DNA from: Candidatus Nomurabacteria bacterium RIFCSPHIGHO2_01_FULL_37_25
Lineage (GTDB): Bacteria > Patescibacteriota > Minisyncoccia > Phycocordibacterales > UBA9973
Direction: 5' to 3'
DNA: 44,509 nt
Assembly: GCA_001786765.1 (NCBI GenBank)
Contig: MFTH01000003.1
Location: 1-44,509 of the forward strand
Positions 3,913 through 44,300 of the stretch are shown piece by piece. The translations under genes were made by a program, and so were the position numbers. A model generated the notes under the pieces. That model was given only the letters and a program-made list of their open reading frames with translations. It made no database searches and was not told where the DNA came from. The stretch's first letter is position 1, and each line of letters begins with the position of its first letter.

Positions 3913-3990
3913 GCTCGCTTGGAAGTATAGCTTACGAACGATAAAATGGGAGGTGTTTCCGCATTTCCTTCTGTTTCTTTGCAACAAATT
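3913..3990 (+). repeat. att-like repeat copy 2
   Basis: GCTCGCTTGGAAGTATAGCTTACGAACGATAAAATGGGAGGTGTTTCCGCATTTCCTTCTGTTTCTTTGCAACAAAT. Confidence 0.85.
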
Positions 3991-6247: not shown

Positions 6248-6350
6248 GCTCGCTTGGAAGTATAACTTACGAACGATTAAATGGGAAGAGGTGTTCTCTT
6301 ATCCGTCTGTTTCTTTACAACAAATGAGGCAATTACTGGCGATTTTTTAG
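6248..6350 (+). repeat. att-like repeat copy 3
   Basis: GCTCGCTTGGAAGTATAACTTACGAACGATTAAATGGGAAGAGG...; open frame reads LLAWKYNLRTIKWEEVFSYPSVSLQQMRQLLAIF*. Confidence 0.85.
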
Positions 6351-8515: not shown

Positions 8516-8660
8516 CAAAAAGCCCACCACAGGTAGAGACCGAAGTCTCTCGCACAGGTTTCCCTGTACGGCAGATCGTGCAACCCCATGATGGGTTTTT
8601 TATTCACGATCTGACTTTTAACCATACCTTAAACTTTGAAATTCAAGGGTTAGGTCTCTA
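8516..8660 (-). ncRNA. Structured cis-regulatory/antisense RNA with c4-like architecture
   Basis: Minus strand has hairpins GTACAGG-GAAA-CCTGTGC and GAGAC-TTCG-GTCTC, closing stem CCCATCAT/GTGGTGGG plus U-tract, and nested complements TAGAGACC/GGTCTCTA and CAGATCGTG/CACGATCTG. Confidence 0.6.
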
Positions 8661-8804: not shown

Positions 8805-8876
8805 CTCCGGGGGTAGGGATCGAACCTACGACCAATCGCTTAACAGGCGATCGCTCTACCACTGAGCTACCCCGGA
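8805..8876 (-). tRNA. tRNA-Asn(GTT)
   Basis: 72-nt cloverleaf TCCGGGG...CCCCGGAG; anticodon arm ATCGC-CTGTTAA-GCGAT; T-loop GGTTCGAT; full CCA not encoded. Confidence 0.97.
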
Positions 8877-16701: not shown

Positions 16702-17277
16702 ATGGATAAAGCTTTTGCGGTACGCACACAAGAGGAAATGCTGGATGTTTTGATGACTCCGGAATCTAGCGGACCGGATGTTCACTATTTTATGATTCGG
16801 GGAGGCAGTGAGAAAAAAAATATTACTATCTGGCAAGCCGGATTAGTCGGCGAAGAATATATTAAAACTTACGGGCATTATCATGTTAGTGATTTTATAG
16901 AAACTTACACAGTGCTTGCGGGTGAGGGAATAATTCTTTTACAAAATAGAAAAATAAATGAGAAAGGAATTTTAATTGATGACGAGGTGGAAGAGGCGCG
17001 GGCGATTTTTGTCAAAGCCGGTAGCGTTGTGCAAATACCTAAAAATGCTGGGCATCTTGCTGTAAACACAGGGGAATCATGGCTGGTAACATCAGACGAT
17101 AGTCCAGTTAATTTAAATAAAATGAACGAAGCCGCTTGGCCTGTGCATGCGGATTATGAGCCAGTCAGGAAACTCCACGGTTTTGCTTATTATGTCGTGA
17201 AAAAAAATGGCAAGCCTTTTTTTATTAAAAACGAAAACTATAAAAATGTTCCCGAAATCATTATAGAAAACGCATAA
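16702..17277 (+). CDS. Cupin-type (archaeal-like) glucose-6-phosphate isomerase family protein
   Basis: EYIKTYGHYH...ETYTVLAGEGIILLQ and GHLAVNTG. Confidence 0.8.
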   Translation: MDKAFAVRTQEEMLDVLMTPESSGPDVHYFMIRGGSEKKNITIWQAGLVGEEYIKTYGHYHVSDFIETYTVLAGEGIILLQNRKINEKGILIDDEVEEARAIFVKAGSVVQIPKNAGHLAVNTGESWLVTSDDSPVNLNKMNEAAWPVHADYEPVRKLHGFAYYVVKKNGKPFFIKNENYKNVPEIIIENA

Positions 17278-17395
17278 TCCCGTTAGAAGTCGCGATCGCG
17301 TTTAATTAATATAAATATGAAAGAAGATATAAATAAAATTAATAGCATAATTTATCAGATGCGAAATACGATCGCGATCTGCTTCTAAACGGGAT
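17277..17395. mobile_element. CCCGTTAGA/TCTAACGGG miniature element, copy upstream of glgA
   Basis: TIR ATCCCGTTAGAAG...CTTCTAAACGGGAT overlaps the glgA ATG; internal uORF at 17317..17388. Confidence 0.85.
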
Positions 17396-18896
17396 GAAAA
17401 TATTTTCCTCCAATATCCATAAAAAAATCCGGCCGCTGAAAATTTTATTTGTTGGAAGCGAGATAGCGCCTTTTATAAAAATCGGAGGATTGGGAGAAGT
17501 TTTGCAAGCCTTGCCGAAAGCCCTTTCAGAGCTTGGGCATGATATAAGGACGATGACGCCTAAATATGCGTCAATAGACGAGAAAGAATTTCCTATGACT
17601 GTAATTTTAGACGGGCTTTTGGTTCCAAATTCGGATAGCGAAGATCTAATATGTAATGTGAAAAAATATAAAAATGGCGAGAGCCCAGTAAACTATTTTT
17701 TAGAAAACCAAGAATATTATGAAAAAAGAGGCAGCGTCTATGGCTATGATGACGACCCTGCTCGTTGGGCGCTACTTGCAAAGGGCACTTTGGAATTTAT
17801 AAGGCATAAAATGAATGAATGGAAGCCTGATATAATTGTCGCTAACGATTGGCAAGGGGGATTGATACCAAATTATATGAAATGTGAATACAGCAAAGAC
17901 CCCATAATTTCTAAAATCGCTTCCACTTTTATCATTCACAATATTTATTATCAAGGAATGTTTGACCATAAACATACGAGTGAACTCGACTATGATGATG
18001 GACAGTCCCAAGTTCCTTCCATTACTGATCCAAGGCTACTTAAAATAAATTTTATGCGTCGGGGGATTCGTTATGCGGATGTAATAAATACTGTTTCTCC
18101 AAATTATGCGCGGGAGATTACTACTCCTCAGTACGGAGAAGGTTTAGACCAACTATTGCAAGAAAGGCGAAGCAGACTTTTTGGAATTCTGAATGGTATA
18201 AATTATGAGAATTATAATCCGGAGACAAATCCTTATGTTGAATTCAAATATAACGAGGATAATTTAGACGAACGGATAAAAAATAAAAAAATATTGCAAC
18301 AAAAATTTAATTTACCAGAAAAAAAAGACGCTTTTTTGGTAAGTATAATCGGCCGTCTGGCGGAACAAAAGGGTATTAATTTGGTAGCTGATACAATCGA
18401 GCCTCTGCTTGAGAATTTTGATTTTCAATTCATAATATTAGGAGCGGGAGAATCGCATTTTGCCGATTTTTTTGGCGAGCTTGATAAAAAATACAAAAAT
18501 GTGGCTACGCATCTTTCTTTTGACAATATTTTACCACATAGTATTTACGCTGGAGCCGATGCTATCCTCATTCCTTCTCGATTTGAGCCATGCGGATTGA
18601 CCCAGATGGAATCAATGCGCTACGGAGTCGTGCCGATAGTGCGAAAAACTGGAGGACTCGCTGACAGTGTCAAAGATCATACTTCCAGAGAGGATCCAGG
18701 TACTGGCTTTGTCTTTGAACACTATGATAAATATGCCTTTTTAGGCACTTTTATGCGCGCTTATGAAATATTCAAATACCCAAAAATTTGGCAAGAAATA
18801 CAGAAACGCGCAATGAAGGAGAATTTTTCTTGGGAAAAATCAGCCAAGGAATATGAGAAACTTTTTATGCGAGCCCTTAATCAACTTAATTCCTAA
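17394..18896 (+). CDS. glgA: Glycogen synthase (GT5)
   Basis: KIGGLGEV, ANDWQ, TIHN-like IIHN, VSPNYA, PSRFEPCGLTQM, RKTGGLADSV. Confidence 0.95.
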   Translation: MKIFSSNIHKKIRPLKILFVGSEIAPFIKIGGLGEVLQALPKALSELGHDIRTMTPKYASIDEKEFPMTVILDGLLVPNSDSEDLICNVKKYKNGESPVNYFLENQEYYEKRGSVYGYDDDPARWALLAKGTLEFIRHKMNEWKPDIIVANDWQGGLIPNYMKCEYSKDPIISKIASTFIIHNIYYQGMFDHKHTSELDYDDGQSQVPSITDPRLLKINFMRRGIRYADVINTVSPNYAREITTPQYGEGLDQLLQERRSRLFGILNGINYENYNPETNPYVEFKYNEDNLDERIKNKKILQQKFNLPEKKDAFLVSIIGRLAEQKGINLVADTIEPLLENFDFQFIILGAGESHFADFFGELDKKYKNVATHLSFDNILPHSIYAGADAILIPSRFEPCGLTQMESMRYGVVPIVRKTGGLADSVKDHTSREDPGTGFVFEHYDKYAFLGTFMRAYEIFKYPKIWQEIQKRAMKENFSWEKSAKEYEKLFMRALNQLNS

Positions 18897-18907
18897 AAGT
18901 AAATATG

Positions 18908-19028
18908 ATCCCGTTAGAAGCCACGATCACAATTTATAAAATAAAAATTATGAAAATAAATTTAGATAATATTACTAATTTAACTTATCAGATGCAAAAC
19001 ATGATTGCGATCTGCTTCTAAACGGGAT
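18908..19028. mobile_element. CCCGTTAGA/TCTAACGGG miniature element, copy upstream of GH57
   Basis: Same TIRs; internal uORF at 18950..19021, extendable to ATG 18905. Confidence 0.85.
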
Positions 19029-20514
19029 GAAATGGGCTAACTTTTTACATTTTTACCAACCAGCTGACCAGCAACCAGATATTTTGGAGGCAATCGTTAC
19101 GCAAAGCTATCGGCCGATTATCGAGGGTATAAAAAAAAATAAAAACGTTCATCTGACGATAAATATTAACGGCGCGCTTTTTGAATTGTTGAATAAATTT
19201 GGGCACAAAGACATAATTGAAGATTTGAAAAATTTAGTAAAAGAAGGCCGTATTGAAATAACAGGATCGGCAAAATATCACCCTCTCTTGCCGCTTCTAT
19301 CTGAGGAGGAAATAGAAAGACAAATAACATTAAACACAGAAACGCTAAAAAAATTTTTAGGAGATTACACTCCTAACGGATTTTTTTCTCCAGAAATGGC
19401 CTACGACGACAGAATCGGAAAGATTATAGAAAAACTTGGCTTTAAATGGCTTATTTTAGATGAAATTTCCTGTGGCGGAGAGGTGGGAGGTGTTGATTAC
19501 AATCAAATTTATAAACTAAAAGACACTGATTTTAAAGTTTTTTTTCGTAATCGAAGACTTTCTAATTTAATCATGAGCGCAGTCGTTCGATCTCGTGATA
19601 CTTTATTGGAAGCGATGCAAGACGAACTGAAAAGTGATGATTATATCGTGACTGCTATGGACGCGGAGACTTTTGGGCATCATCGACCAGGACTTGAAAA
19701 AATGCTTTTTGAAGTTTTTGACACTCCAGAATTTGAACTTGTAAAAATTTCCGATATTTCAAAATTTTACAAAGAAAAAAAAGAAATTTCTCCTGCCAAG
19801 GCTACTTGGGCGTCGAGTAAAGAAGATATAGACAATGGCATTCAATTTCTTTCGTGGAATGACCCAGAGAATATGATTCATGGCTGGCAGTGGAAATTTA
19901 CAAAACTCGTTTTGAATGAAGTTTATAGTATGAACAAAAATAATGAGCGTTATGAACTTGTGCGCGAGAAAATGGACAAAGCGCTAGCGTCAGATCATTT
20001 TTGGTGGGCATCCGCCAAACCCTGGTGGAGCCTAGAGATGATCGAAGATGGGTCATTTAATTTGCTTGACACTTTAAGGCATATTCCTGATGTAAAATTG
20101 GAAATCTTGTCTGAAGGAAGGGATTATTATGAGAAAATAATTACAACGGCTTTTAACTGGCAGCGCACTGGCAAAATAAGGATGATGATGCAATCACAAA
20201 GAGACATATTAAGGATTCCATTCAAAGACCGTACTTTGGGCCGTCCGGGGGCGGAAAATGTGTATTATGCTTTTCTAGCAATGATGGAAAAGCTAAAAAA
20301 AGAAGCAGCAAAACGCGGAGAATACGAGCAAGCAATTCTTTGGCGTGATGCGATTTATAAACTTAAACATAAATTGGATATTTATGACACTATGAATGCT
20401 ATCGATTTAGTGCGTGTGAAAATTCCCCACGAGGAGGTTGAGAAAACTATTATTGAATATGAAGAGAAATATCGTCGCATGCGTGGCGGGCAACCCGAGC
20501 AACGCGGAGGGTAA
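19027..20514 (+). CDS. Glycoside hydrolase family 57 protein
   Basis: HFYQP, GSAKYHPLLP, FSPEMA, DAETFGHH, SDHFWW. Confidence 0.9.
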   Translation: MKWANFLHFYQPADQQPDILEAIVTQSYRPIIEGIKKNKNVHLTININGALFELLNKFGHKDIIEDLKNLVKEGRIEITGSAKYHPLLPLLSEEEIERQITLNTETLKKFLGDYTPNGFFSPEMAYDDRIGKIIEKLGFKWLILDEISCGGEVGGVDYNQIYKLKDTDFKVFFRNRRLSNLIMSAVVRSRDTLLEAMQDELKSDDYIVTAMDAETFGHHRPGLEKMLFEVFDTPEFELVKISDISKFYKEKKEISPAKATWASSKEDIDNGIQFLSWNDPENMIHGWQWKFTKLVLNEVYSMNKNNERYELVREKMDKALASDHFWWASAKPWWSLEMIEDGSFNLLDTLRHIPDVKLEILSEGRDYYEKIITTAFNWQRTGKIRMMMQSQRDILRIPFKDRTLGRPGAENVYYAFLAMMEKLKKEAAKRGEYEQAILWRDAIYKLKHKLDIYDTMNAIDLVRVKIPHEEVEKTIIEYEEKYRRMRGGQPEQRGG

Positions 20515-35472: not shown

Positions 35473-35515
35473 GATAATATTGTAGCATATATTTTTAAAT
35501 ATAATACTTTGAATT

Positions 35516-35640
35516 ACGAAACTCTTTCTAGGCATGTCTTTTTCTAGGGTACGGATTTTTTTAAGCTTAAAAAATCCTGAAGTTCTCGGCTCGACAGCCT
35601 CGAAACCCCCTAAAAAAGACATGCCTTCGACGAGTTTCGT
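35516..35640. mobile_element. 125-bp nested-hairpin element, copy A
   Basis: TIR ACGAAACTC/GAGTTTCGT flanked by AATT; 124/125 identical to 41014..41138. Confidence 0.9.
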
Positions 35641-35664
35641 AATTCACGATATAATAACAATAAT

Positions 35665-37143
35665 ATGTCTAAAAAAATAATTCTGTTTTTGGTTGGTCTT
35701 GTTTTATTTTCTTCTTATAATTTAGCATACGCTGGTCTTGTCATAAATGAAATCATGTATGATTTAGAGGATGCTGATACTGGTCGCGAATGGGTTGAAA
35801 TTTATAATAATTCTGATACGGCAGTTGATGTATCGGCTTTCAAATTTTTTGAAGCAAATACGAATCATGGACTTACTTTGGTAGAGGGCGATGCGAATAT
35901 AGGAGCTTATGGTTATGCGGTGATTGTTTCTGATAGTGAAAAATTCAAAATTGATTGGCCTAATTTTCCCGGAACTATTTTTGATTCTAGTTTTTCATTA
36001 AGTAACGATGGAGAGGCTTTAGCCATAAAAGACGAAAGTTTGAATATTGTTGATGAATATACTTATAGTTCATCTCAAGGCGCAAACGGGGACGGCAATT
36101 CTTTACAAAAAATATCAGGTTCTTGGAGCGTGGCGACATCGACACCTGGAATAGCAAATGAAACTGTGCTTCCACCTTCACCTCCACCAATTGTACCTAA
36201 TAACAGCGAAGGAAGTAGTGGAGGTGGTGGTTCTTCTCCAAATGTAACAGAGAATAAAACCAAGGCGGAAATACCAAAGATTAAAACTAAAATTATAACT
36301 AAAACGATTGCTTTTGTGGGTGTTCCTGTTTCCTTTGAGGCTTTAGCATTTGGATATAACGGGGAAAAACTTTTTTCAGGAAAATATTTTTGGAATTTTG
36401 GAGATGGCGATTCAGTAGAATTAAAAGGAAGTGATATAAATAATCAAAAATTTACTCACACTTATTTTTATCCGGGTGAATATGTTGTTAATTTAGAATA
36501 TTACACAAATCATTATGGAGATGTGCCTGATGCTTCTGATAAGGTAATAATAAAAGTAGTGTCGGCGGATATTTTGATATCTGGGGTGGGGGATGAAAAA
36601 GATTTTTTCATAGAATTATCAAACAACACTAACTATGACGCTGATATTTCAAAATGGATTCTTTCGAGTGATAAGAAAAGTTTCGTTTTGCCAAAAAATA
36701 CTATTATCGGTTCAAAAAAGAAAATAATTATTTCTCCAAAAATAACTAATTTTTCTATTTTAGATAAAGAAACTTTAAAATTAATGAACTCACAGGGGAA
36801 TAAAATATTTGATTATCAATCTCCCATTGCCCCAGTTGTCACAATTCTTCCAACCAAAACTGCAGATGAAATTATAGTTCAACCAAAGATATCTGCCAGC
36901 GAAAACTCTAAAGTGGTTGAACCGTTGGGAATAGCGCCTGCTCCAGCCGACCAAATTCCTGTTGAAAATTTACCAGCTTTGGCTATCCAAAGTGATATTG
37001 TAAAAAACGAATGGAATGCAACAATAATTGTTTATTTTGTTTCAATTATTTTTATTGGCGCTAGCGCTAGCGCAGTTTATTTTCTTCGCCGAAAGAAAGT
37101 TGTTTCTAATGCTGGAGATGACTTTAATATTTTGGACGAGTGA
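35665..37143 (+). CDS. Secreted lamin-tail-domain (LTD) / PKD surface protein with C-terminal TM
   Basis: INEIMYD..EWVEIYN, FSLSNDGE, WNFGDG..HTY..PGEY, FIELSN, TM near the C-terminus. Confidence 0.85.
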   Translation: MSKKIILFLVGLVLFSSYNLAYAGLVINEIMYDLEDADTGREWVEIYNNSDTAVDVSAFKFFEANTNHGLTLVEGDANIGAYGYAVIVSDSEKFKIDWPNFPGTIFDSSFSLSNDGEALAIKDESLNIVDEYTYSSSQGANGDGNSLQKISGSWSVATSTPGIANETVLPPSPPPIVPNNSEGSSGGGGSSPNVTENKTKAEIPKIKTKIITKTIAFVGVPVSFEALAFGYNGEKLFSGKYFWNFGDGDSVELKGSDINNQKFTHTYFYPGEYVVNLEYYTNHYGDVPDASDKVIIKVVSADILISGVGDEKDFFIELSNNTNYDADISKWILSSDKKSFVLPKNTIIGSKKKIIISPKITNFSILDKETLKLMNSQGNKIFDYQSPIAPVVTILPTKTADEIIVQPKISASENSKVVEPLGIAPAPADQIPVENLPALAIQSDIVKNEWNATIIVYFVSIIFIGASASAVYFLRRKKVVSNAGDDFNILDE

Positions 37144-37202
37144 TATTCATTTTTTAGAATTTTTAAGTTTCTTTTTATCTCTCATTCTGTTATATTCTTT
37201 TT

Positions 37203-38033
37203 ATGTCAAAGCTCAAAATCGGAATTGTTGGTCTGCCGAATGTGGGGAAGTCCACGCTTTTTAACGCGTTGACTAAAAAAAGCGTGCCGGCGGAGAATTA
37301 TCCTTTTTGCACGATTGATCCATCGGTCGGTATCGTTTCCGTTCCAGACGAGCGTTTGATTAATCTTTCAGAAATTTCTAAATCCAAAAAAACAATTCCC
37401 GCAGTAATTGAATTTGTAGATATTGCGGGGTTGGTAAAAGGCGCATCTCTAGGCGCAGGACTTGGCAATAAATTTCTTTCTCATATTCGTGAAGTGGATG
37501 CGATTATTGAGATGGTGCGGATTTTTGAAGATAAAGATATGATCCATGTCCACGATAAAGTTGATCCATTATTTGATATTGAAGTTATAAATTTTGAGCT
37601 TGACCAGGCGGGAATTAAGAAGCCGACGCTATATGTCCTGAATACTTCCGCTGTAGCCGAAAATGTGAAAATAGATTTTGCAGAATTTCTTTTGAAAATT
37701 CCGGGTCCGTATATAGAGGTAGATCCTATTTTTGGCACGGGTTTGGATAATCTAATAAAAGCGAGTTATGACTTACTCAACCTCATTACTTTTTTTACAA
37801 CCGGGGAGGACGAATCCAGAGCTTGGACAACTCTTCGCGGAGCGACTGCGCCATATGCGGGGCGTTCAATTCATACAGATTTCGAGCAGAAATTTATCCG
37901 AGCAGAAGTTGTGTCGTATGGACGATTAGTGGAAGCCGGTTCTTTTGCTAAAGCTCGCGAGAAAGGTTGGGTTCGCACCGAAGGCAAGGAATATATAGTC
38001 AAAGACGGCGATGTTATAGAATTTTTAATATAA
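37203..38033 (+). CDS. ychF: YchF/Ola1 ATPase, short form lacking most of the helical insertion
   Basis: GLPNVGKST, NYPFCTI, DIAGLV, FIRAEV, EGKEYIVKDGD; only 276 aa. Confidence 0.9.
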   Translation: MSKLKIGIVGLPNVGKSTLFNALTKKSVPAENYPFCTIDPSVGIVSVPDERLINLSEISKSKKTIPAVIEFVDIAGLVKGASLGAGLGNKFLSHIREVDAIIEMVRIFEDKDMIHVHDKVDPLFDIEVINFELDQAGIKKPTLYVLNTSAVAENVKIDFAEFLLKIPGPYIEVDPIFGTGLDNLIKASYDLLNLITFFTTGEDESRAWTTLRGATAPYAGRSIHTDFEQKFIRAEVVSYGRLVEAGSFAKAREKGWVRTEGKEYIVKDGDVIEFLI

Positions 38034-38038
38034 ATAAA

Positions 38039-38074
38039 TATCTAAGATTTTCGCATATGCGAAAATCTTAGATA
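38039..38074. repeat. Perfect 36-bp palindrome
   Basis: TATCTAAGATTTTCGCAT|ATGCGAAAATCTTAGATA with no loop. Confidence 0.9.
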
Positions 38075-38083
38075 GACTTCATT

Positions 38084-39040
38084 ATGCAAAATCAAATTAA
38101 AATTTTTTGTTTAAAAGAATGGTCAGCTGATTCTATTCAGGGTAAAAAAGATTATGAACTTTTGGATACCGGAGAAGGGGAGAAGTTAGAGAGATTTGGT
38201 CCGCATATTTTCGCGCGACCGTTTGAAGACGCAGTTTGGCCGAAGGCGCTGACAGAGGAATTGCAGAAAACTTGGGAGAATGCAGATGGTAAATTTTGGA
38301 GTGGAAAGACAGGCGCCAAAGCTGGATGGAAGATGTCAAAGAGACACTTTGACAAGTGGGAGATGGAATACAAAGGCATAAAGTTTTGGGCTATGCCGAC
38401 GCCGTTTAGGCATTTAGGATTTTTCCCGGAACAAGCGAGCCATTGGAATTTTATAGAAGATAAAATTTCCGCCTTGACCAGGTCAAGGCGGACAAAAAAT
38501 TCCTTACCAAACTTGCCCGATAGACCAATAAAGTTTTTAAATCTATTCGGCTATACTGGCGTAGCGAGCCTTTTTGCTTTGCGCGCCGGCGCGGAAGTGA
38601 CGCATGTGGACGCTTCAAAACAAGCTCTCACTTGGGCAAAAGATAATCAGAAATTGTCTAATTTAGAAAAATTACCAATGCGCGTAATCGAAGATGATGT
38701 TCTAAAATTTTTAGAAAGAGAAATAAAAAGAGGCAATAAGTATGATGCCGTTATCATGGATCCGCCCAAGTTCGGCCGAGGACCCAAAGGTGAGACTTGG
38801 AAAATTGAAGAAATGTTGCCGAAACTTCTTTCACTTGTGAAAAAAGTTTTAAATAATAAACCGCTTTTTGTAATTCTGACTTCCTATTCGACAGATTCTT
38901 CTGCGCTTTCTTTAGGATATGCGCTTGCTGAGATAGTAACCGATTATGGTGGAAAAGTAGAGGTGGGTGAGCTTTGCGCGCTAGAAAAGTCTAATAATCG
39001 TTTTATCTCGCTTGCTAATACAGCGGTGTGGGGTGTATAA
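38084..39040 (+). CDS. Class I SAM-dependent methyltransferase (RlmI/RlmK-like)
   Basis: LGFFPEQ, LNLFGYTG, HVDAS, IMDPPKFG. Confidence 0.85.
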   Translation: MQNQIKIFCLKEWSADSIQGKKDYELLDTGEGEKLERFGPHIFARPFEDAVWPKALTEELQKTWENADGKFWSGKTGAKAGWKMSKRHFDKWEMEYKGIKFWAMPTPFRHLGFFPEQASHWNFIEDKISALTRSRRTKNSLPNLPDRPIKFLNLFGYTGVASLFALRAGAEVTHVDASKQALTWAKDNQKLSNLEKLPMRVIEDDVLKFLEREIKRGNKYDAVIMDPPKFGRGPKGETWKIEEMLPKLLSLVKKVLNNKPLFVILTSYSTDSSALSLGYALAEIVTDYGGKVEVGELCALEKSNNRFISLANTAVWGV

Positions 39041-39047
39041 TACAGAT

Positions 39048-39653
39048 ATGAAAGAATTTATAAAAAAGAATTTTGCTATATTATTGGCTTTTGTTTTACC
39101 GATCTTATTAATAGTAATTGTTGCCTTGAATGTATATCTTCCGTCCCTTTTTATTTCTACTAGTTATAATTTTATTTATACATCTTGTATCGATGGGGAA
39201 AATTATTACCGTTCATATAATTGCAATAATTATCTCCAAAAACGCTATTCAGTTGTAGATAATAAATTGCTTGCCAATAATATAGACCCAACTTTAGATT
39301 CAGATAATGACAAGATACCTGATATTAACGAAAATTATACTGCCCGTATTTTTTTGCATGATACAGAAAAGAACGAAAGTAAAGAAATCACACTTGAAGA
39401 TGCGCAGAAACTCACACTTAATAGTCTTTTAACATCGCCTGAAGGTGTCACAGTTTCTAGTAATTACAGTTATCGCGGAGGTGATTTTTTCTTTCTTCCT
39501 TTTGGAGGCAGTTCTTCTTCTTATGGTTACTATTTAACGAAAGGAAAAAGTAAAACTAAACTCAATCTTATAAATGACAACGATCGATATTATTACCAAA
39601 ATAATTTCCAATTTATTGGCTGGGTTTTACCCGGTAGAGATGAAGCGAAATAA
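39048..39653 (+). CDS. Hypothetical membrane-anchored protein
   Basis: N-terminal TM; start at 39048 with TATAAT 6 nt upstream. Confidence 0.75.
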   Translation: MKEFIKKNFAILLAFVLPILLIVIVALNVYLPSLFISTSYNFIYTSCIDGENYYRSYNCNNYLQKRYSVVDNKLLANNIDPTLDSDNDKIPDINENYTARIFLHDTEKNESKEITLEDAQKLTLNSLLTSPEGVTVSSNYSYRGGDFFFLPFGGSSSSYGYYLTKGKSKTKLNLINDNDRYYYQNNFQFIGWVLPGRDEAK

Positions 39654-39679
39654 ATATAATTTATCATTAAATATTTTTT

Positions 39680-41029
39680 ATGACTAAAGAAGAATTATTA
39701 CAAGAGCTTTCTATTAAAATAAATAGTGGAGAAATAAGTAAAGGAGAGGTATTAGGTCGTTTAAACTTATCCACAATAGCTTCGTCCATAGAAGCAAAAT
39801 TAAGAATTCCTTCTAGCTTTTCTGTCACTAAACTTTTATACGTTTTAGGAGCTATTATCGCAATAGCGGGAATGTTTCTTTTTTCTTATCAAATTTGGAA
39901 TGATATAGGCTCTATCGGTAGAATTTCCATCACTTTGGGTCTAGGTTTGATGCTTACGGCTATTGGGTCAGTATTATCCAGAAATAAAACAGAAGAGGAG
40001 GGAGACACTATCGGAACAATTTTTCATTTTATGGGTGGATTGCTCATTCCTGGTGGATCTTTGGTTGCTCTCTTTGAATTTAGCACAGGCATGGATCCTT
40101 CATGGCCACTCGCACTTACATTTGGAACTATCTTTTTGTTTTATTTATTAATAAACTACATACACAAAAATGCTGTCTTAACTTTCTTCACCATAGCAAA
40201 TGGCACAGCCTTTATCTATCTTCTAGTTGAAGCAATTACCGGTGGTTTATTTTATGATTATGTTAACTTATATGCTTACCTCACTATGGTAATAGGGGCA
40301 TGTTATATTTTACTCGCACATTCTTTTCGCGATAGTTGGAATAGCAAACTCGTTCCAGTACTATACTTCTTTGGTTTTATTGGCGTAGAGTCTGCCGTAT
40401 TTGTTCAATATAACAATGTTACTTCTTGGGGAAGTCAGCATTCTATGTGGCCGGTTGTATTTTCTTTAGGGTTAATATTTATATTTTATTTGTTTTTGAA
40501 CTTCTCTCTTAAAAATGTTTTTCTGACACTTCTGACTATTATGAATGGCACAGCGTTCATTTATGTATTGGTGGAGGCATTAATAGGTGGTTCGTATTCT
40601 TTTGACACAGATATATATATGTATTTAACCATGGTTATAGGCTTGGTTTACATGTTATTATCTTATTCATTCCGTGATGGTCCAAATAGTAAGTTGGTTG
40701 AAATTCTAAATTTTTTCGGCATTACCGGTTTGCTTGGAGCAGCGTTCTCTCAGATTTATGGATCACTGCCTTGGCAGTTGTCCTTCCTTGTTTTAGTCAT
40801 AGGAGGATTTGTTTTTTCTATATACGCTAAAAGTCGCGCCATATTGGTAATTAGCACTCTTTTTCTTTTAGCTCATGTTTCTTATATTACTAGTGAGTAC
40901 TTTGCCGACTCGCTTGGTTGGCCTATCTCTCTTGTGATTCTCGGTTTTATATTTATAGGGCTTGGTTATCTCTCAATTAATATAAATAAGAAATATATTA
41001 AAGATCGTGAATTACAAAACTCTTTCTAG
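39680..41029 (+). CDS. Polytopic membrane protein (DUF2157-like) with an internal duplication
   Basis: More than 12 TM segments; the NGTAFIY...YLTMVIG...SFRD..NSKLV block occurs twice. Confidence 0.75.
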   Translation: MTKEELLQELSIKINSGEISKGEVLGRLNLSTIASSIEAKLRIPSSFSVTKLLYVLGAIIAIAGMFLFSYQIWNDIGSIGRISITLGLGLMLTAIGSVLSRNKTEEEGDTIGTIFHFMGGLLIPGGSLVALFEFSTGMDPSWPLALTFGTIFLFYLLINYIHKNAVLTFFTIANGTAFIYLLVEAITGGLFYDYVNLYAYLTMVIGACYILLAHSFRDSWNSKLVPVLYFFGFIGVESAVFVQYNNVTSWGSQHSMWPVVFSLGLIFIFYLFLNFSLKNVFLTLLTIMNGTAFIYVLVEALIGGSYSFDTDIYMYLTMVIGLVYMLLSYSFRDGPNSKLVEILNFFGITGLLGAAFSQIYGSLPWQLSFLVLVIGGFVFSIYAKSRAILVISTLFLLAHVSYITSEYFADSLGWPISLVILGFIFIGLGYLSININKKYIKDRELQNSF

Positions 41030-41138
41030 GCATGTCTTTTTCTAGGGTACGGATTTTTTTAAGCTTAAAAAATCCTGAAGTTCTCGGCTCGACAGCCTCG
41101 AAACCCCCTAAAAAAGACATGCCTTCGACGAGTTTCGT
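41014..41138. mobile_element. 125-bp nested-hairpin element, copy B
   Basis: Same internal orientation as 35516..35640, one mismatch at 41016; provides the TAG of the upstream gene. Confidence 0.9.
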
Positions 41139-41182
41139 AATTCAAAGTTAAAGAATAATTAAAAAATAATAAAAAATCACTT

Positions 41183-41211: not shown

Positions 41212-41221
41212 AAAAGAATGA

Positions 41222-41304
41222 ATCCCGTTAGAAGCCGCGGTCGCAATAATTATAAGGTTGAATTAAGTAGTCACGGTATGACCGCGACCTGCTTCTAACG
41301 GGAT
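41222..41304. mobile_element. CCCGTTAGA/TCTAACGGG miniature element at the leuS start
   Basis: TIR ATCCCGTTAGAAG/CTTCTAACGGGAT; ATGAA direct repeat at 41218-41222 and 41303-41307. Confidence 0.9.
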
Positions 41305-44300
41305 GAAAGAATACGACCATAAAAAATTAGAGAAGAAATGGCAATCTATTTGGGAAAAAAAGAAAATATATCAAGCTCAAAACTCTTTTAAAAAACCCAA
41401 GTATTATAGTCTAATCGAGTTTCCTTATCCTTCTGGTGATGGGCTTCATGTCGGTCATCCGCGACCTTATATTGGGATGGATGTTATTTCTAGAAAAAGA
41501 AGGATGGAAGGTTTTAATGTCCTTTATCCTATAGGTTGGGATGCTTTTGGTTTGCCGACGGAAAATTATGCTATCAAGACAGGCAAGGACCCGCGAGTTG
41601 TCACTAAAGAAAATACTGATACTTTTCGTGGGCAAATAAAATCACTTGGCATTTCTTTTGATTGGTCGCGGGAGATAAATACGACTGACCCAAAATATTA
41701 CAAATGGACGCAGTGGATATTCTTGCAATTTTTAAAAAAAGGTTTGGCGTATAAAGCCAAAATGACGATCAATTGGTGTCCGAAATGTAAAATTGGTCTT
41801 GCTAATGAAGAGGTTGTCAATAATTCTTGCGAGCGTTGCGGAACGACAGTGGAGAAACGCAAAAAAGAACAATGGATGCTCGCCATTACTAAATACGCAG
41901 ATAGATTAGATAAAGATTTAGATGATGTAGATTATCTTCCTCAAATCAAACTAGGACAAAGGAATTGGATAGGACGGAGCGAAGGGGCAGAGATAGAATT
42001 TAAGATTACTGTGAAACAAAAAAATAATTTTGGCGCCTTCGCCCTCGGAGGCAAAGGACAGGGAACCCACGACGCTCAAAATCATTCTTTTGTTTCGCAG
42101 TCTGTAAAAGTTTTCACCACTCGACCTGATACTATTTTTGGAGTCACATTTATTGCTTTAGCGCCTGAAATCGCGAAAAAACTCACAGGTAAAGATTTTG
42201 GTATTAAGTCAGATGTTGATAGGGAAAATAAACAAAAAATAGGAGTGGATACCGGGCTTGAAGCAAAAAATCCCGCAAATGGCGAAATGATACCTGTTTT
42301 TGCGGTCAATTATGTATCAGCGGAATATGGCACCGGAGCTATTATGGGTGTGCCAGCGCATGACGAGAGAGATTTTGAATTTGCCAAGAAATATAATTTA
42401 CCGATTAAGGAAGTTATTGAACCGGTATTTGTTGATACTGAAGGTATTGACGCGGTGCAAAAAGATAAACCTATGGTAGAACGAGAAGCAATATTGGCTA
42501 TTGTTAAACATTGGTCGGAAGATAAATATCTGGGTCTAAAATGGAAAAAAGTTAATTGGGGAACTTTTATTAGTGGTGGAGTAGAAAAAGGTCAGACATC
42601 TGAACAAGCGGCTAGAGCCGAAATAGAAGAGGAAACAGGCTATTTTAATTTGAAATTAATTAAAACTCTTGGTCGTTATCATAGTAAATTTTTTCATACA
42701 CCAAAAAATGAAAATCGTTTTGGTCATTTTAACACTTTCTATTTTGAGTTAGAAAATGGGAAACAAAATGAAATATCTAAAGAAGAAAAAGAGAAACACG
42801 AAATATTGTGGCTTAGTCCCAAAGAGATAGAGAAATTTTTAACAACAGAAAGTTTGCGTTATAGGTGGAATATTTTACAGGGTTATAAAAAAATATATAC
42901 TGGCAGAGGAATTCTCGTCAATTCAGGTAAATTCTCTGGTATGGATTCGGAGAAAGCAAAGAAAGAAATTATAAAATTTGTTGGCGGGAAAGAAAAAACA
43001 ACTTTCAAACTTCGCGATTGGATTTTTTCAAGGCAAAGGTACTGGGGAGAACCGATACCGGTGATTTATTGTGAAAATTGCCGAGTCGGAAGCCTTGCTT
43101 CCGACAAACGGAAGCAAGGCTTCCGACTGGAAAATGCTGGCTGGATTCCAGTGCCGGAAAAAGATTTACCAGTAGAACTTCCAAAAGTTAAAAATTATCA
43201 GCCGACGGATAGCGGAGAATCACCGCTTGCGAATATTCCAAAATGGGTGAATGTAAAATGTCCGCAGTGTAAAGGTAAAGCTAAAAGAGAAACAGACACA
43301 ATGCCGAATTGGGCAGGTTCTAGCTGGTATTATCTTCGTTATACTGATGATAAAAACAAAAAAGAATTCGCTTCACAGAAAAATCTACGCTATTGGTTAG
43401 GGGTTGACCCCGTTAGAGAAAGGTCGCCCCAAGGTGACCGAAGCACTGCCTCTGGCAGGGCGTTCTCTAACGAGGTTGACCCCGTTAGAGAAAGGTCGCC
43501 CCAAGGTGACCGAAGCACTGCCTCTGGCAGGGCGTTCTCTAACGGGGTGGATTGGTACAATGGGGGAAATGAGCATACGACACTGCATCTTCTATATTCT
43601 CGTTTTTGGCATAAATTTCTTTTTGATTTAAAACTAGTCCCTACTAATGAGCCATATATGAAAAGAACTTCGCACGGACTTATTTTAGCCGAAGGCGGGG
43701 AAAAAATGTCTAAATCCAAGGGCAATGTTATTAATCCGAATGATATTGTGAAAATATATGGAGCAGATACGCTTAGATTGTATGAAATGTTTATGGGTCC
43801 GTTTGATCAGGCGATAGCTTGGAGCGAAGAAGCAATCATTGGCCCGAGGAGATTTTTGGAAAAAGTTTGGAGAATAGGAATGTCAAAGTGTCTCTTTGAC
43901 AAAAAATCACCAATGTCAAAGAGACACTTTGACATTACGAGACTTCTTCATAAAACCATCAAAAAAGTATCCGAAGATATAGAAGAAATGCGTTTTAATA
44001 CAGCAATTTCCGCGCTGATGATACTTGCAACAGAAATGGAAAAAGCTGAAAAGCTAACACCTGAAAGCTATAAGCTATTCCTGCAAATTCTTGCGCCATT
44101 TGCGCCACACATTGCAGAAGAGCTTTGGCAGAATCTGGCTCCCCAAGGTCTCGCCTTTGGCTTTCTTAAAGCGAGACCTTCTTCCTCCAGTATTCATTCC
44201 TCAGCTTGGCCGAAGTGGGATGAGAATTTAATAAAAGATGAAGAAATAAAAATTATAATTCAGATAAATGGAAAAGTTAGAACGGAGATTGTTATACAGG

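Follow-up and report, generated by a model that had tools for sequence, protein, structure and literature searches.

The window analysed here is a 44,509-nucleotide stretch of contig MFTH01000003.1 (positions 1 to 44,509, forward strand) from Candidatus Nomurabacteria bacterium RIFCSPHIGHO2_01_FULL_37_25, and it contains two copies, A and B, of a short hairpin-forming element. Copy A lies between a pfkB gene on the minus strand (true start at about 35472) and a gene encoding an LTD domain (start at 35665), while copy B is inserted two codons ahead of the stop codon of a DUF2157 gene (39680-41029). The original prediction, made from the letters alone, described 125-bp direct repeats bracketed by AATT, with mirror-image hexamers outside them and nested stems within, and sequence comparison and folding bear out each of these features. 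The repeats at 35516-35640 (A) and 41014-41138 (B) differ at one position (G at 35518, A at 41016), AATT stands on either side of both, and the outer hexamers, ACTTTG/CACGAT for A and ATCGTG/CAAAGT for B, are exact reverse complements of each other. This pattern had been taken for one element occupying one 16-bp target in two orientations.

The supposed target, however, belongs to the element. The stem of the hairpin begins at TGAATT, and the TG and CA of the hexamers, together with the AATT, form part of an inverted repeat rather than of the flank. Similarity between A and B does stop past the hexamers, as had been noted, but each copy has a 7-bp direct repeat of its own, which overlaps the outermost base of the hexamers and begins three bases beyond the stem's TG...CA. 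Copy A reads TATAATA / CTT-TG...CA-CGA / TATAATA, and copy B reads TTAAAGA / TCG-TG...CA-AAG / TTAAAGA. Matching 7-mers at that spacing occurred by chance at 4.5e-4 of positions, as measured in the window. We also found an empty allele of site B among the related loci that we collected (numbered L001 onwards, about 460 kb in total): in L019, a contig of a 99.5%-identical strain, the DUF2157 gene lacks copy B, all 143+7 bp are missing, and the contig is colinear with the window once these are deleted. Because the 7-bp repeats abut the tips and L019 supplies the empty allele, what moves is 143 bp long and leaves a target-site duplication of 7 bp, rather than being 125 bp long and entering a site of 16 bp; the apparent 16-bp target is made up of the element's tips and of the palindrome TGAATT/AATTCA with which its arms begin.

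These boundaries alter what is recovered when copy B is removed. Deleting 143+7 bp gives a DUF2157 C-terminus of ...NKKYIKE*, compared with ...KDRELQNSF* (...KKYIKDRELQNSF) when copy B is present, and the empty allele L019 reads ...NKRYIKNN*; the C-terminus KDREFKVKE* proposed earlier came from wrong excision boundaries. Sequence-specific integration of a 125-bp element at a 16-bp site, one of the two mechanisms originally offered, is contradicted on three counts: the duplications lie outside the 16 bp, L019 is without the 16 bp, and no empty site was found. The unoccupied sequence ACTTTGAATTCACGAT was absent from the window at up to 3 mismatches and from the collected loci, where matches of the TGAATTCA type were chance EcoRI-like sites without tips or duplications. 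We rejected a composite transposon running from A to B, as its outer duplications are unlike (TATAATA v TTAAAGA) and L019 lacks B only. A 113-bp difference upstream of the DUF2157 gene in L013/L005 was likewise discarded, being a local duplication of the end of the preceding gene and not an element.

Each end of the element has a 3-nt tip, a perfect 15-bp outer arm (TGAATTACGAAACTC), one side of a 5-nt bubble (TTTCT opposite GTCGA) and a 14-bp inner arm; at the centre is a 69-nt core of two small hairpins, which gives the whole a T-shaped three-way junction. The terminal inverted repeats (ends CTTTGAATTAC/TCGTGAATTAC) pair perfectly over 15 + 14 bp around the bubble, and only the outermost 3 nt are unlike. 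These tips are of two types, X (5'-CTT, with variants CTC and TTT) and Y (5'-TCG, with variants TCA and TTG), and the difference between X and Y lets a left end of the element be told from a right end. A 145-nt stretch folded at -61.6 kcal/mol on one strand and -66.7 kcal/mol on the other (z = -9.4 and -10.4, respectively, compared with shuffled sequences). Its coding capacity is confined to short spurious open reading frames through the hairpin, with no transposase. The parts of the two copies, established by sequence comparison and, for copy A, also by folding, are as follows.

35500..35506, no strand: left target-site duplication of copy A, TATAATA, identical to 35650-35656
35507..35649, + strand: copy A, 143-bp foldback element, isomer X-core(+)-Y
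35507-35509: copy A tip CTT
35510-35524: copy A outer arm TGAATTACGAAACTC
35525-35529: copy A bubble TTTCT
35530-35543: copy A inner arm
35544-35612: copy A T-shaped core
35613-35626: copy A second inner arm
35627-35631: copy A bubble TCGAC
35632-35646: copy A second outer arm
35647-35649: copy A tip CGA
35650..35656, no strand: right target-site duplication of copy A, TATAATA, which doubles as a -10-like hexamer
40998..41004, no strand: left target-site duplication of copy B, TTAAAGA, identical to 41148-41154
41005..41147, + strand: copy B, 143-bp foldback element, isomer Y-core(+)-X
41005-41007: copy B tip TCG
41008-41022: copy B outer arm (A at 41016)
41023-41027: copy B bubble TTTCT
41028-41041: copy B inner arm
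41042-41110: copy B T-shaped core
41111-41124: copy B second inner arm
41125-41129: copy B bubble TCGAC
41130-41144: copy B second outer arm
41145-41147: copy B tip AAG
41148..41154, no strand: right target-site duplication of copy B, TTAAAGA, identical to 40998-41004

We searched for further copies by arm-pattern scans of GTDB species representatives and JGI metagenomes, and by look-ups of open reading frames called through the element. A young subfamily (family 1, subfamily 1) was recovered at 15 independent insertion sites, its copies at least 93% and mostly at least 97% identical, together with a diverged subfamily 2 (about 10% divergence) and related families. The terminal bases recur in other copies, next to 7-bp duplications that are unrelated from site to site, and the flanks beyond share nothing. 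Perfect 7/7 duplications abutted the tips at seven sites (window A, window B, L027/36, L032, L025/33/37, L047a and L047b; TATAATA, TTAAAGA, TATGGAA, TGTAAAA, AAAATAT, GTTTTGA and TTGTATA), where about 0.007 would be expected by chance for 15 sites (4.5e-4 each). Five further sites had 5-7 matching bases or a duplication offset by one or two bases, and the duplication was absent at 3/15 (L024, L026/31a/40, with only a 4-bp match in L026, and L043-45). The target duplicated is 7 bp and AT-rich. Small size, lack of a transposase, terminal inverted repeats, a duplication of fixed length, dispersed copies and presence/absence polymorphism together place the element among the MITEs, or miniature inverted-repeat transposable elements.

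Two of these sites were irregular at their ends. At L043:3077-3242 (= L044, L045) an X tip stood at both ends and the target-site duplication was absent, as would be expected either if two copies had exchanged arms, with a chromosomal inversion as the implied consequence, or if the assembly were chimeric. At L049:2007-2160 the duplication TGATAAA abuts CA directly on the right, where the Y-type tip (TGA) coincides with the first three bases of the duplication, so either the tip is absent or a TGATGA tandem has lost one of its TGA units.

No autonomous element with the same ends was present among exact-pattern matches in GTDB representatives, JGI metagenomes or IMG/VR (0 in IMG/VR), or in the window; diverged ends would escape such patterns, and the source genome itself lay outside the genome collection scanned. 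Nor did the recombinase or transposase gene envisaged by the original prediction appear, either in the 44.5-kb window or, with these ends, in the arm-pattern scans. One candidate for an autonomous partner, L028, has a single arm beside an open reading frame, and was dismissed because that frame carries the Fic motif HPFxxGNGR and the element is incomplete.

The core set the orientation of every copy, placing the TTTCT bubble to the left, before the tips were typed. One X and one Y tip were found in 14/15 copies and X-X in 1/15. The order was X-core(+)-Y in 8/15 (window A, L027/36, L030, L026/31a/40, L022/42, L024, L047a and L049) and Y-core(+)-X in 6/15 (window B, L025/33/37, L032, L031b, L046 and L047b). 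Flanks tabulated against core orientation across the 15 sites, a comparison proposed at the outset, thus fell eight one way and six the other, with the X-X copy remaining. The 5-nt bubble constantly accompanied the core, and in about half of the copies a 137-bp interior was inverted relative to the tips, with the break falling within the perfect 15-bp arm TGAATTACGAAACTC. The family therefore exists as two isomers in which all that lies inside the tips (bubble, inner arms and core) is inverted; copy A is one and copy B the other. A 145-bp element whose core inverts between its terminal inverted repeats, the second mechanism originally offered, was essentially right, as both isomers are common, except that the unit is 143 bp and only the 3-nt tips are asymmetric.

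The interior has probably flipped more than once, judging from the distribution of sequence variants, since neither isomer is confined to one haplotype or to one subfamily. Hairpin-1 haplotype TT..A was found in three copies of each isomer, and haplotype CG..G in three copies of the first isomer and two of the second. The rare tip variant TCA occurred once per isomer (L049 and L047b), and the diverged subfamily 2 was likewise seen in both arrangements.

We conclude, with a probability of roughly 70%, that A and B are two copies of one MITE, a non-autonomous foldback transposon carried by a Candidatus Nomurabacteria population in the Rifle aquifer, and that its interior flips between its arms. 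Mobilisation would be by a DDE-type transposase encoded elsewhere and acting in trans, which we assume and did not find. The flip would come about when the two perfect 15-bp segments of the arms undergo intramolecular exchange, through recombination between inverted repeats or through replication template-switching across the hairpin; such exchange would preserve the target duplication along with a single X and a single Y tip, and could take place in situ or during the making of a new copy. Exchange from arm to arm is supported, as compensatory changes are pervasive, the arms and small hairpins having kept their pairing through double changes in 15/31 consensus pairs, and because the inner arm of L020b has been rewritten and is still complementary. 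We also considered the 3-nt tips as donor flank, as a circle-junction spacer or as P-nucleotides left by hairpin opening, none of which predicts conserved tips with a flipped interior; TCA-TGA is palindromic, but TCA is a minority tip variant.

Several observations count against a flipping interior. The markers shared between isomers are CpG-type transitions or hairpin-loop changes, which are able to recur, and they are mutually incompatible by the four-gamete criterion, so that the copies are mosaic. No locus was found in both states, and loci with several contigs agreed throughout at the contig level, including all 20 contigs at site A and all 19 at site B. Orthologous copies were in the same state at about 10% flank divergence (L029, L039), as were L001/L006 at 97.5% identity, although with only a handful of comparisons the joint probability of such agreement under fast flipping in place is still about 0.2. 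No tail of the opposite state was present in the protein clusters of the DUF2157 and pfkB fusion products, and peptide searches with both reading frames of the element returned further sites only and no opposite-state allele. No transposase with these ends was recovered, every arm match in the GTDB-representative and JGI scans being a short element, and a perfect arm of 15 bp is short for RecA-dependent recombination. The X-X copy (L043-45) and the copy with a 4-bp match (L026) need an extra explanation, whether inter-copy exchange or chimeric assembly. The agreement in state between orthologous loci is a hint that the interior may flip when a copy is made and not while it stays in place.

The same lack of a locus in both states, the recurrent nature of the shared variants and the mosaicism of the copies would also fit a single ancient inversion that gave rise to two co-amplifying master lineages, with no flipping at present and with the shared polymorphisms due to recurrent mutation or gene conversion. 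Such a history would require many parallel events, however, given that each isomer is represented among copies of the two main haplotypes, copies bearing the rare TCA tip and copies of subfamily 2, and we consider it unlikely.

An assembly artefact around the repeated hairpin was also weighed. The same arrangement of both copies is seen in 19-20 contigs of four assembly sources (JGI, NCBI, ENA and Logan), and because these agree it is not a one-off misassembly. Many of the contigs stop within the element, as is expected of a repeat, the 137-bp interior is identical between copies, so that joining the flanks needs long k-mers or read pairs, and the X-X copy without a duplication could itself be a chimera. 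Tip, arm and bubble nevertheless lie within about 25 nt and are linked by a single read or k-mer, and matching 7-bp duplications independently pair the flanks at a minimum of seven sites. An artefact of this kind can be given almost no weight.

Beyond the main family, the T-shaped core (T-core) recurs in different surroundings. It is 62-70 nt long and is laid out as GGTAC - hairpin 1 - TGAAG - hairpin 2 - AACCCC, with nearly invariant junction bases and co-variation in both small stems. At least five mutually unrelated outer stems enclose it, those of the main family and at least four others:

L044:4425-4560 (= L045:1-140): outer arm of the main family with another inner arm
L031:6390-6500: inner arm of L044 with another outer arm
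L050:139-274: a third stem
L051:1264-1399: a stem of only 9 bp

Ordinary MITE families share their ends and vary in their interior. In the main family and its relatives, on sequence comparison, the interior is the constant part and the arms vary. A covariance model of the T-core returned no more diverged copies in the window or the collected loci. Small G+C-rich palindromes were present inside the hairpin-1 and hairpin-2 loops at L021:3908-4060 (= L035), L022/L042, L047:9532-9700 and L020:2392-2565 (for example CCCCGCCATGGCGGGG, CCTGCCTGCCGGCAGGCAGG and CCCCTCCCCACTTTT...AAAAGTGGGGAGGGG), and the hairpin loops appear to be preferred landing sites.

Two accounts would make an inner part of the element mobile. 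In the first, nested insertion, which is the sequence-specific integration originally offered put at its most robust, an inner unit of 125-137 bp would enter the palindromic centre (AATT/GAATTC) of a short resident or co-mobile shell, that is, the tips plus TGAATTCA without the interior, in either orientation. The arm combinations speak for it, with one outer arm joined to two inner arms (family 1 v L044), one inner arm found in two outer arms (L044 v L031:6390-6500) and one T-core in its five or more arm contexts, as do the other small palindromes in the hairpin loops of elements (L021/35, L022/42, L047a and L020a). The empty shell, CTTTGAATTCACGA, was found neither in the window nor in the collected loci, however, the empty allele L019 is without shell and interior alike, and every 7-bp duplication brackets the 143-bp unit. 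As the AATT lies inside the perfect arm, no separate duplication of an inner unit is demonstrable, and we think nested insertion decidedly improbable. In the second account the T-core itself may be the unit of selection or mobility, a DNA three-way junction copied into or captured by unrelated palindromic shells, with its orientation reset at each copying by hairpin transfer or template switching. This would account for the near 1:1 ratio of isomers among near-identical copies, the stable state of orthologues and the five arm contexts, and if true would make T-core mobility a chromosomal counterpart to flip/flop in the terminal hairpins of parvoviruses; we offer it as a speculative suggestion with low odds.

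The invariant junction bases and the stems that co-vary across families could mark a functional structured RNA, either a small RNA or a cis-regulator, with the long arms as its closing helix. Against this, the element had no Rfam match at E<=10 beyond noise; the best, at 21.9 bits compared with a gathering score of 117, was to a plant miRNA hairpin model, and a search of the window at gathering scores returned only LOOT and one tRNA. Relative to the neighbouring or host gene the core is also found either way round (window B v L031:6390-6500), the structure is equally good on both strands, and palindromes gain compensatory changes by templated correction without selection too. An RNA function is thus very doubtful. 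By eye the core resembled a hammerhead ribozyme in having CUGAAG and GAAA, but C3 and the A15.1-U16.1 pair misfit and no ribozyme model matched.

The original prediction had further suggested that inversion of copy A, between divergent promoters, could act as a switch. Programmed phase variation by a site-specific recombinase, with copy A controlling the pfkB and LTD genes, would be compatible with several features of the site. The bubble, the sole asymmetric feature of the arms, is at the -35 position relative to the duplicated TATAAT, and because of this a flip at A would swap two -35 hexamers. TCGACG-17-TATAAT, the best promoter-like match, scored 10/12 towards the LTD gene and TAGAAA-18-TATTAT scored 9/12 towards pfkB, and Correia elements, discussed below, carry promoters and are reported to invert. 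The switch is unsupported, however, as the 44.5-kb window contains no recombinase and each site is in a single state (20/20 contigs at A, 19/19 at B). Furthermore, the -10 hexamer is an accident of the site, where the target happened to be TATAATA, and most copies lie elsewhere, one of them within the 3' end of a gene. A programmed switch is, in our view, highly unlikely.

The closest precedent for a flipping MITE is the Correia element (CREE/NEMIS) of Neisseria (described in PMC9778887), for which inversion, alternative end versions and promoters have been reported (PMC10969869). Both are non-coding, multi-copy elements of about 100-155 bp with terminal inverted repeats and long hairpins, lie near or in genes and can supply promoter hexamers. 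The Nomurabacteria element is analogous to the Correia element and not a member of its family: the sequences are unrelated, the hosts belong to different phyla, and ends of CTTTGAATTAC/TCGTGAATTAC with a 7-bp duplication contrast with the 26-bp Correia repeat TATAGTGGATTAA... and its duplication of TA. In addition, inversion of the Nomurabacteria element is inferred from paralogous copies only and not at one locus, and the asymmetry of its ends is limited to 3 nt.

Other comparisons are looser. The ERIC/IRU, RUP and Rickettsia palindromic elements are, like ours, small imperfect palindromes that have spread between genes and sometimes lie in coding regions with the frame kept; copy B alters only the last residues of its protein. 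Insertion into one another is a further likeness (PMC10969869), whereas no sequence similarity exists. The present element also has a T-shaped core with two internal hairpins that is common to families with different arms, which to our knowledge is no described feature of these groups. The terminal hairpins of parvoviruses such as adeno-associated virus (AAV), and the telomeres of poxviruses, form flip and flop isomers by hairpin transfer at the ends of linear replicons, with a nicking protein. The likeness to these, by analogy only and without membership, lies in a T-shaped imperfect palindrome that takes two inverted-complement forms relative to a fixed outer sequence, roughly 1:1; unlike them, the Nomurabacteria element is internal to the chromosome and has target-site duplications, and no nicking protein was identified. 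Invertible switches such as fimS and hin have a dedicated recombinase, usually encoded adjacently, and both states coexist at one locus. Our element resembles them in having a segment between inverted repeats in two orientations, and differs in that the window encodes no recombinase and no locus among the contigs is in both states.

We found no description of MITEs in Patescibacteria, or the Candidate Phyla Radiation, in the literature searched. The element is a new MITE family in this phylum, an unusual host, and its isomerism is of a known kind. Its analysis corrects a tempting misreading, in that a hairpin transposon with a 3-nt asymmetry of its ends and a flipping interior mimics one element in one target in two orientations. 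It also documents an active MITE family in Candidatus Nomurabacteria, whose tiny genomes, like those of other Patescibacteria, are usually thought poor in mobile DNA. With one copy in a promoter region and another in a gene's last codons, the insertions have changed gene ends and possibly expression, and copies of the element break short-read assemblies of these organisms. If flipping is tied to copying, or if the T-core is mobile or protein-bound, the family would provide a simple natural system for palindrome-driven rearrangements.

Other repeats were observed in the window. At 43402-43545 the leucyl-tRNA synthetase (LeuRS) gene contains two tandem, in-frame copies of a 72-bp unit that has inverted ends of its own (CCCGTTAGAGAA...TTCTCTAACGG), so that VDPVRERSPQGDRSTASGRAFSN is encoded twice; according to the gene table, this gene also has a NUDIX domain insertion. 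A second palindromic family (ATCCCGTTAGAAG..GCGATCGC ... CTTCTAAACGGGAT) is found at 17277-17396, 18905-19032 and 41220-41305, directly upstream of the genes for glycogen synthase, a GH57 enzyme and LeuRS. In the two cases read, the start codon lies inside its right arm (ACGGGATGAAA), and the family may form a structure in the 5' leader or be a further MITE, one that provides the start region. LOOT RNA (RF03000, 83 bits) is located beside a tRNA gene at 8535-8656 (-) and 8805-8876 (-), and a tRNA fragment of 25 nt occurs at both 8857 and 9168. Finally, three copies of an upstream region (GGAAGYATARCTTACGAACGAT...TTTCTTTGCAACAAAT), each about 70 bp long, lie at 860-931, 3921-3989 and 6256-6325. 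They adjoin the 5' ends of three open reading frames on the minus strand, including those for an M23 peptidase-like protein and a DpnI-like fragment, and may represent a shared promoter or leader.

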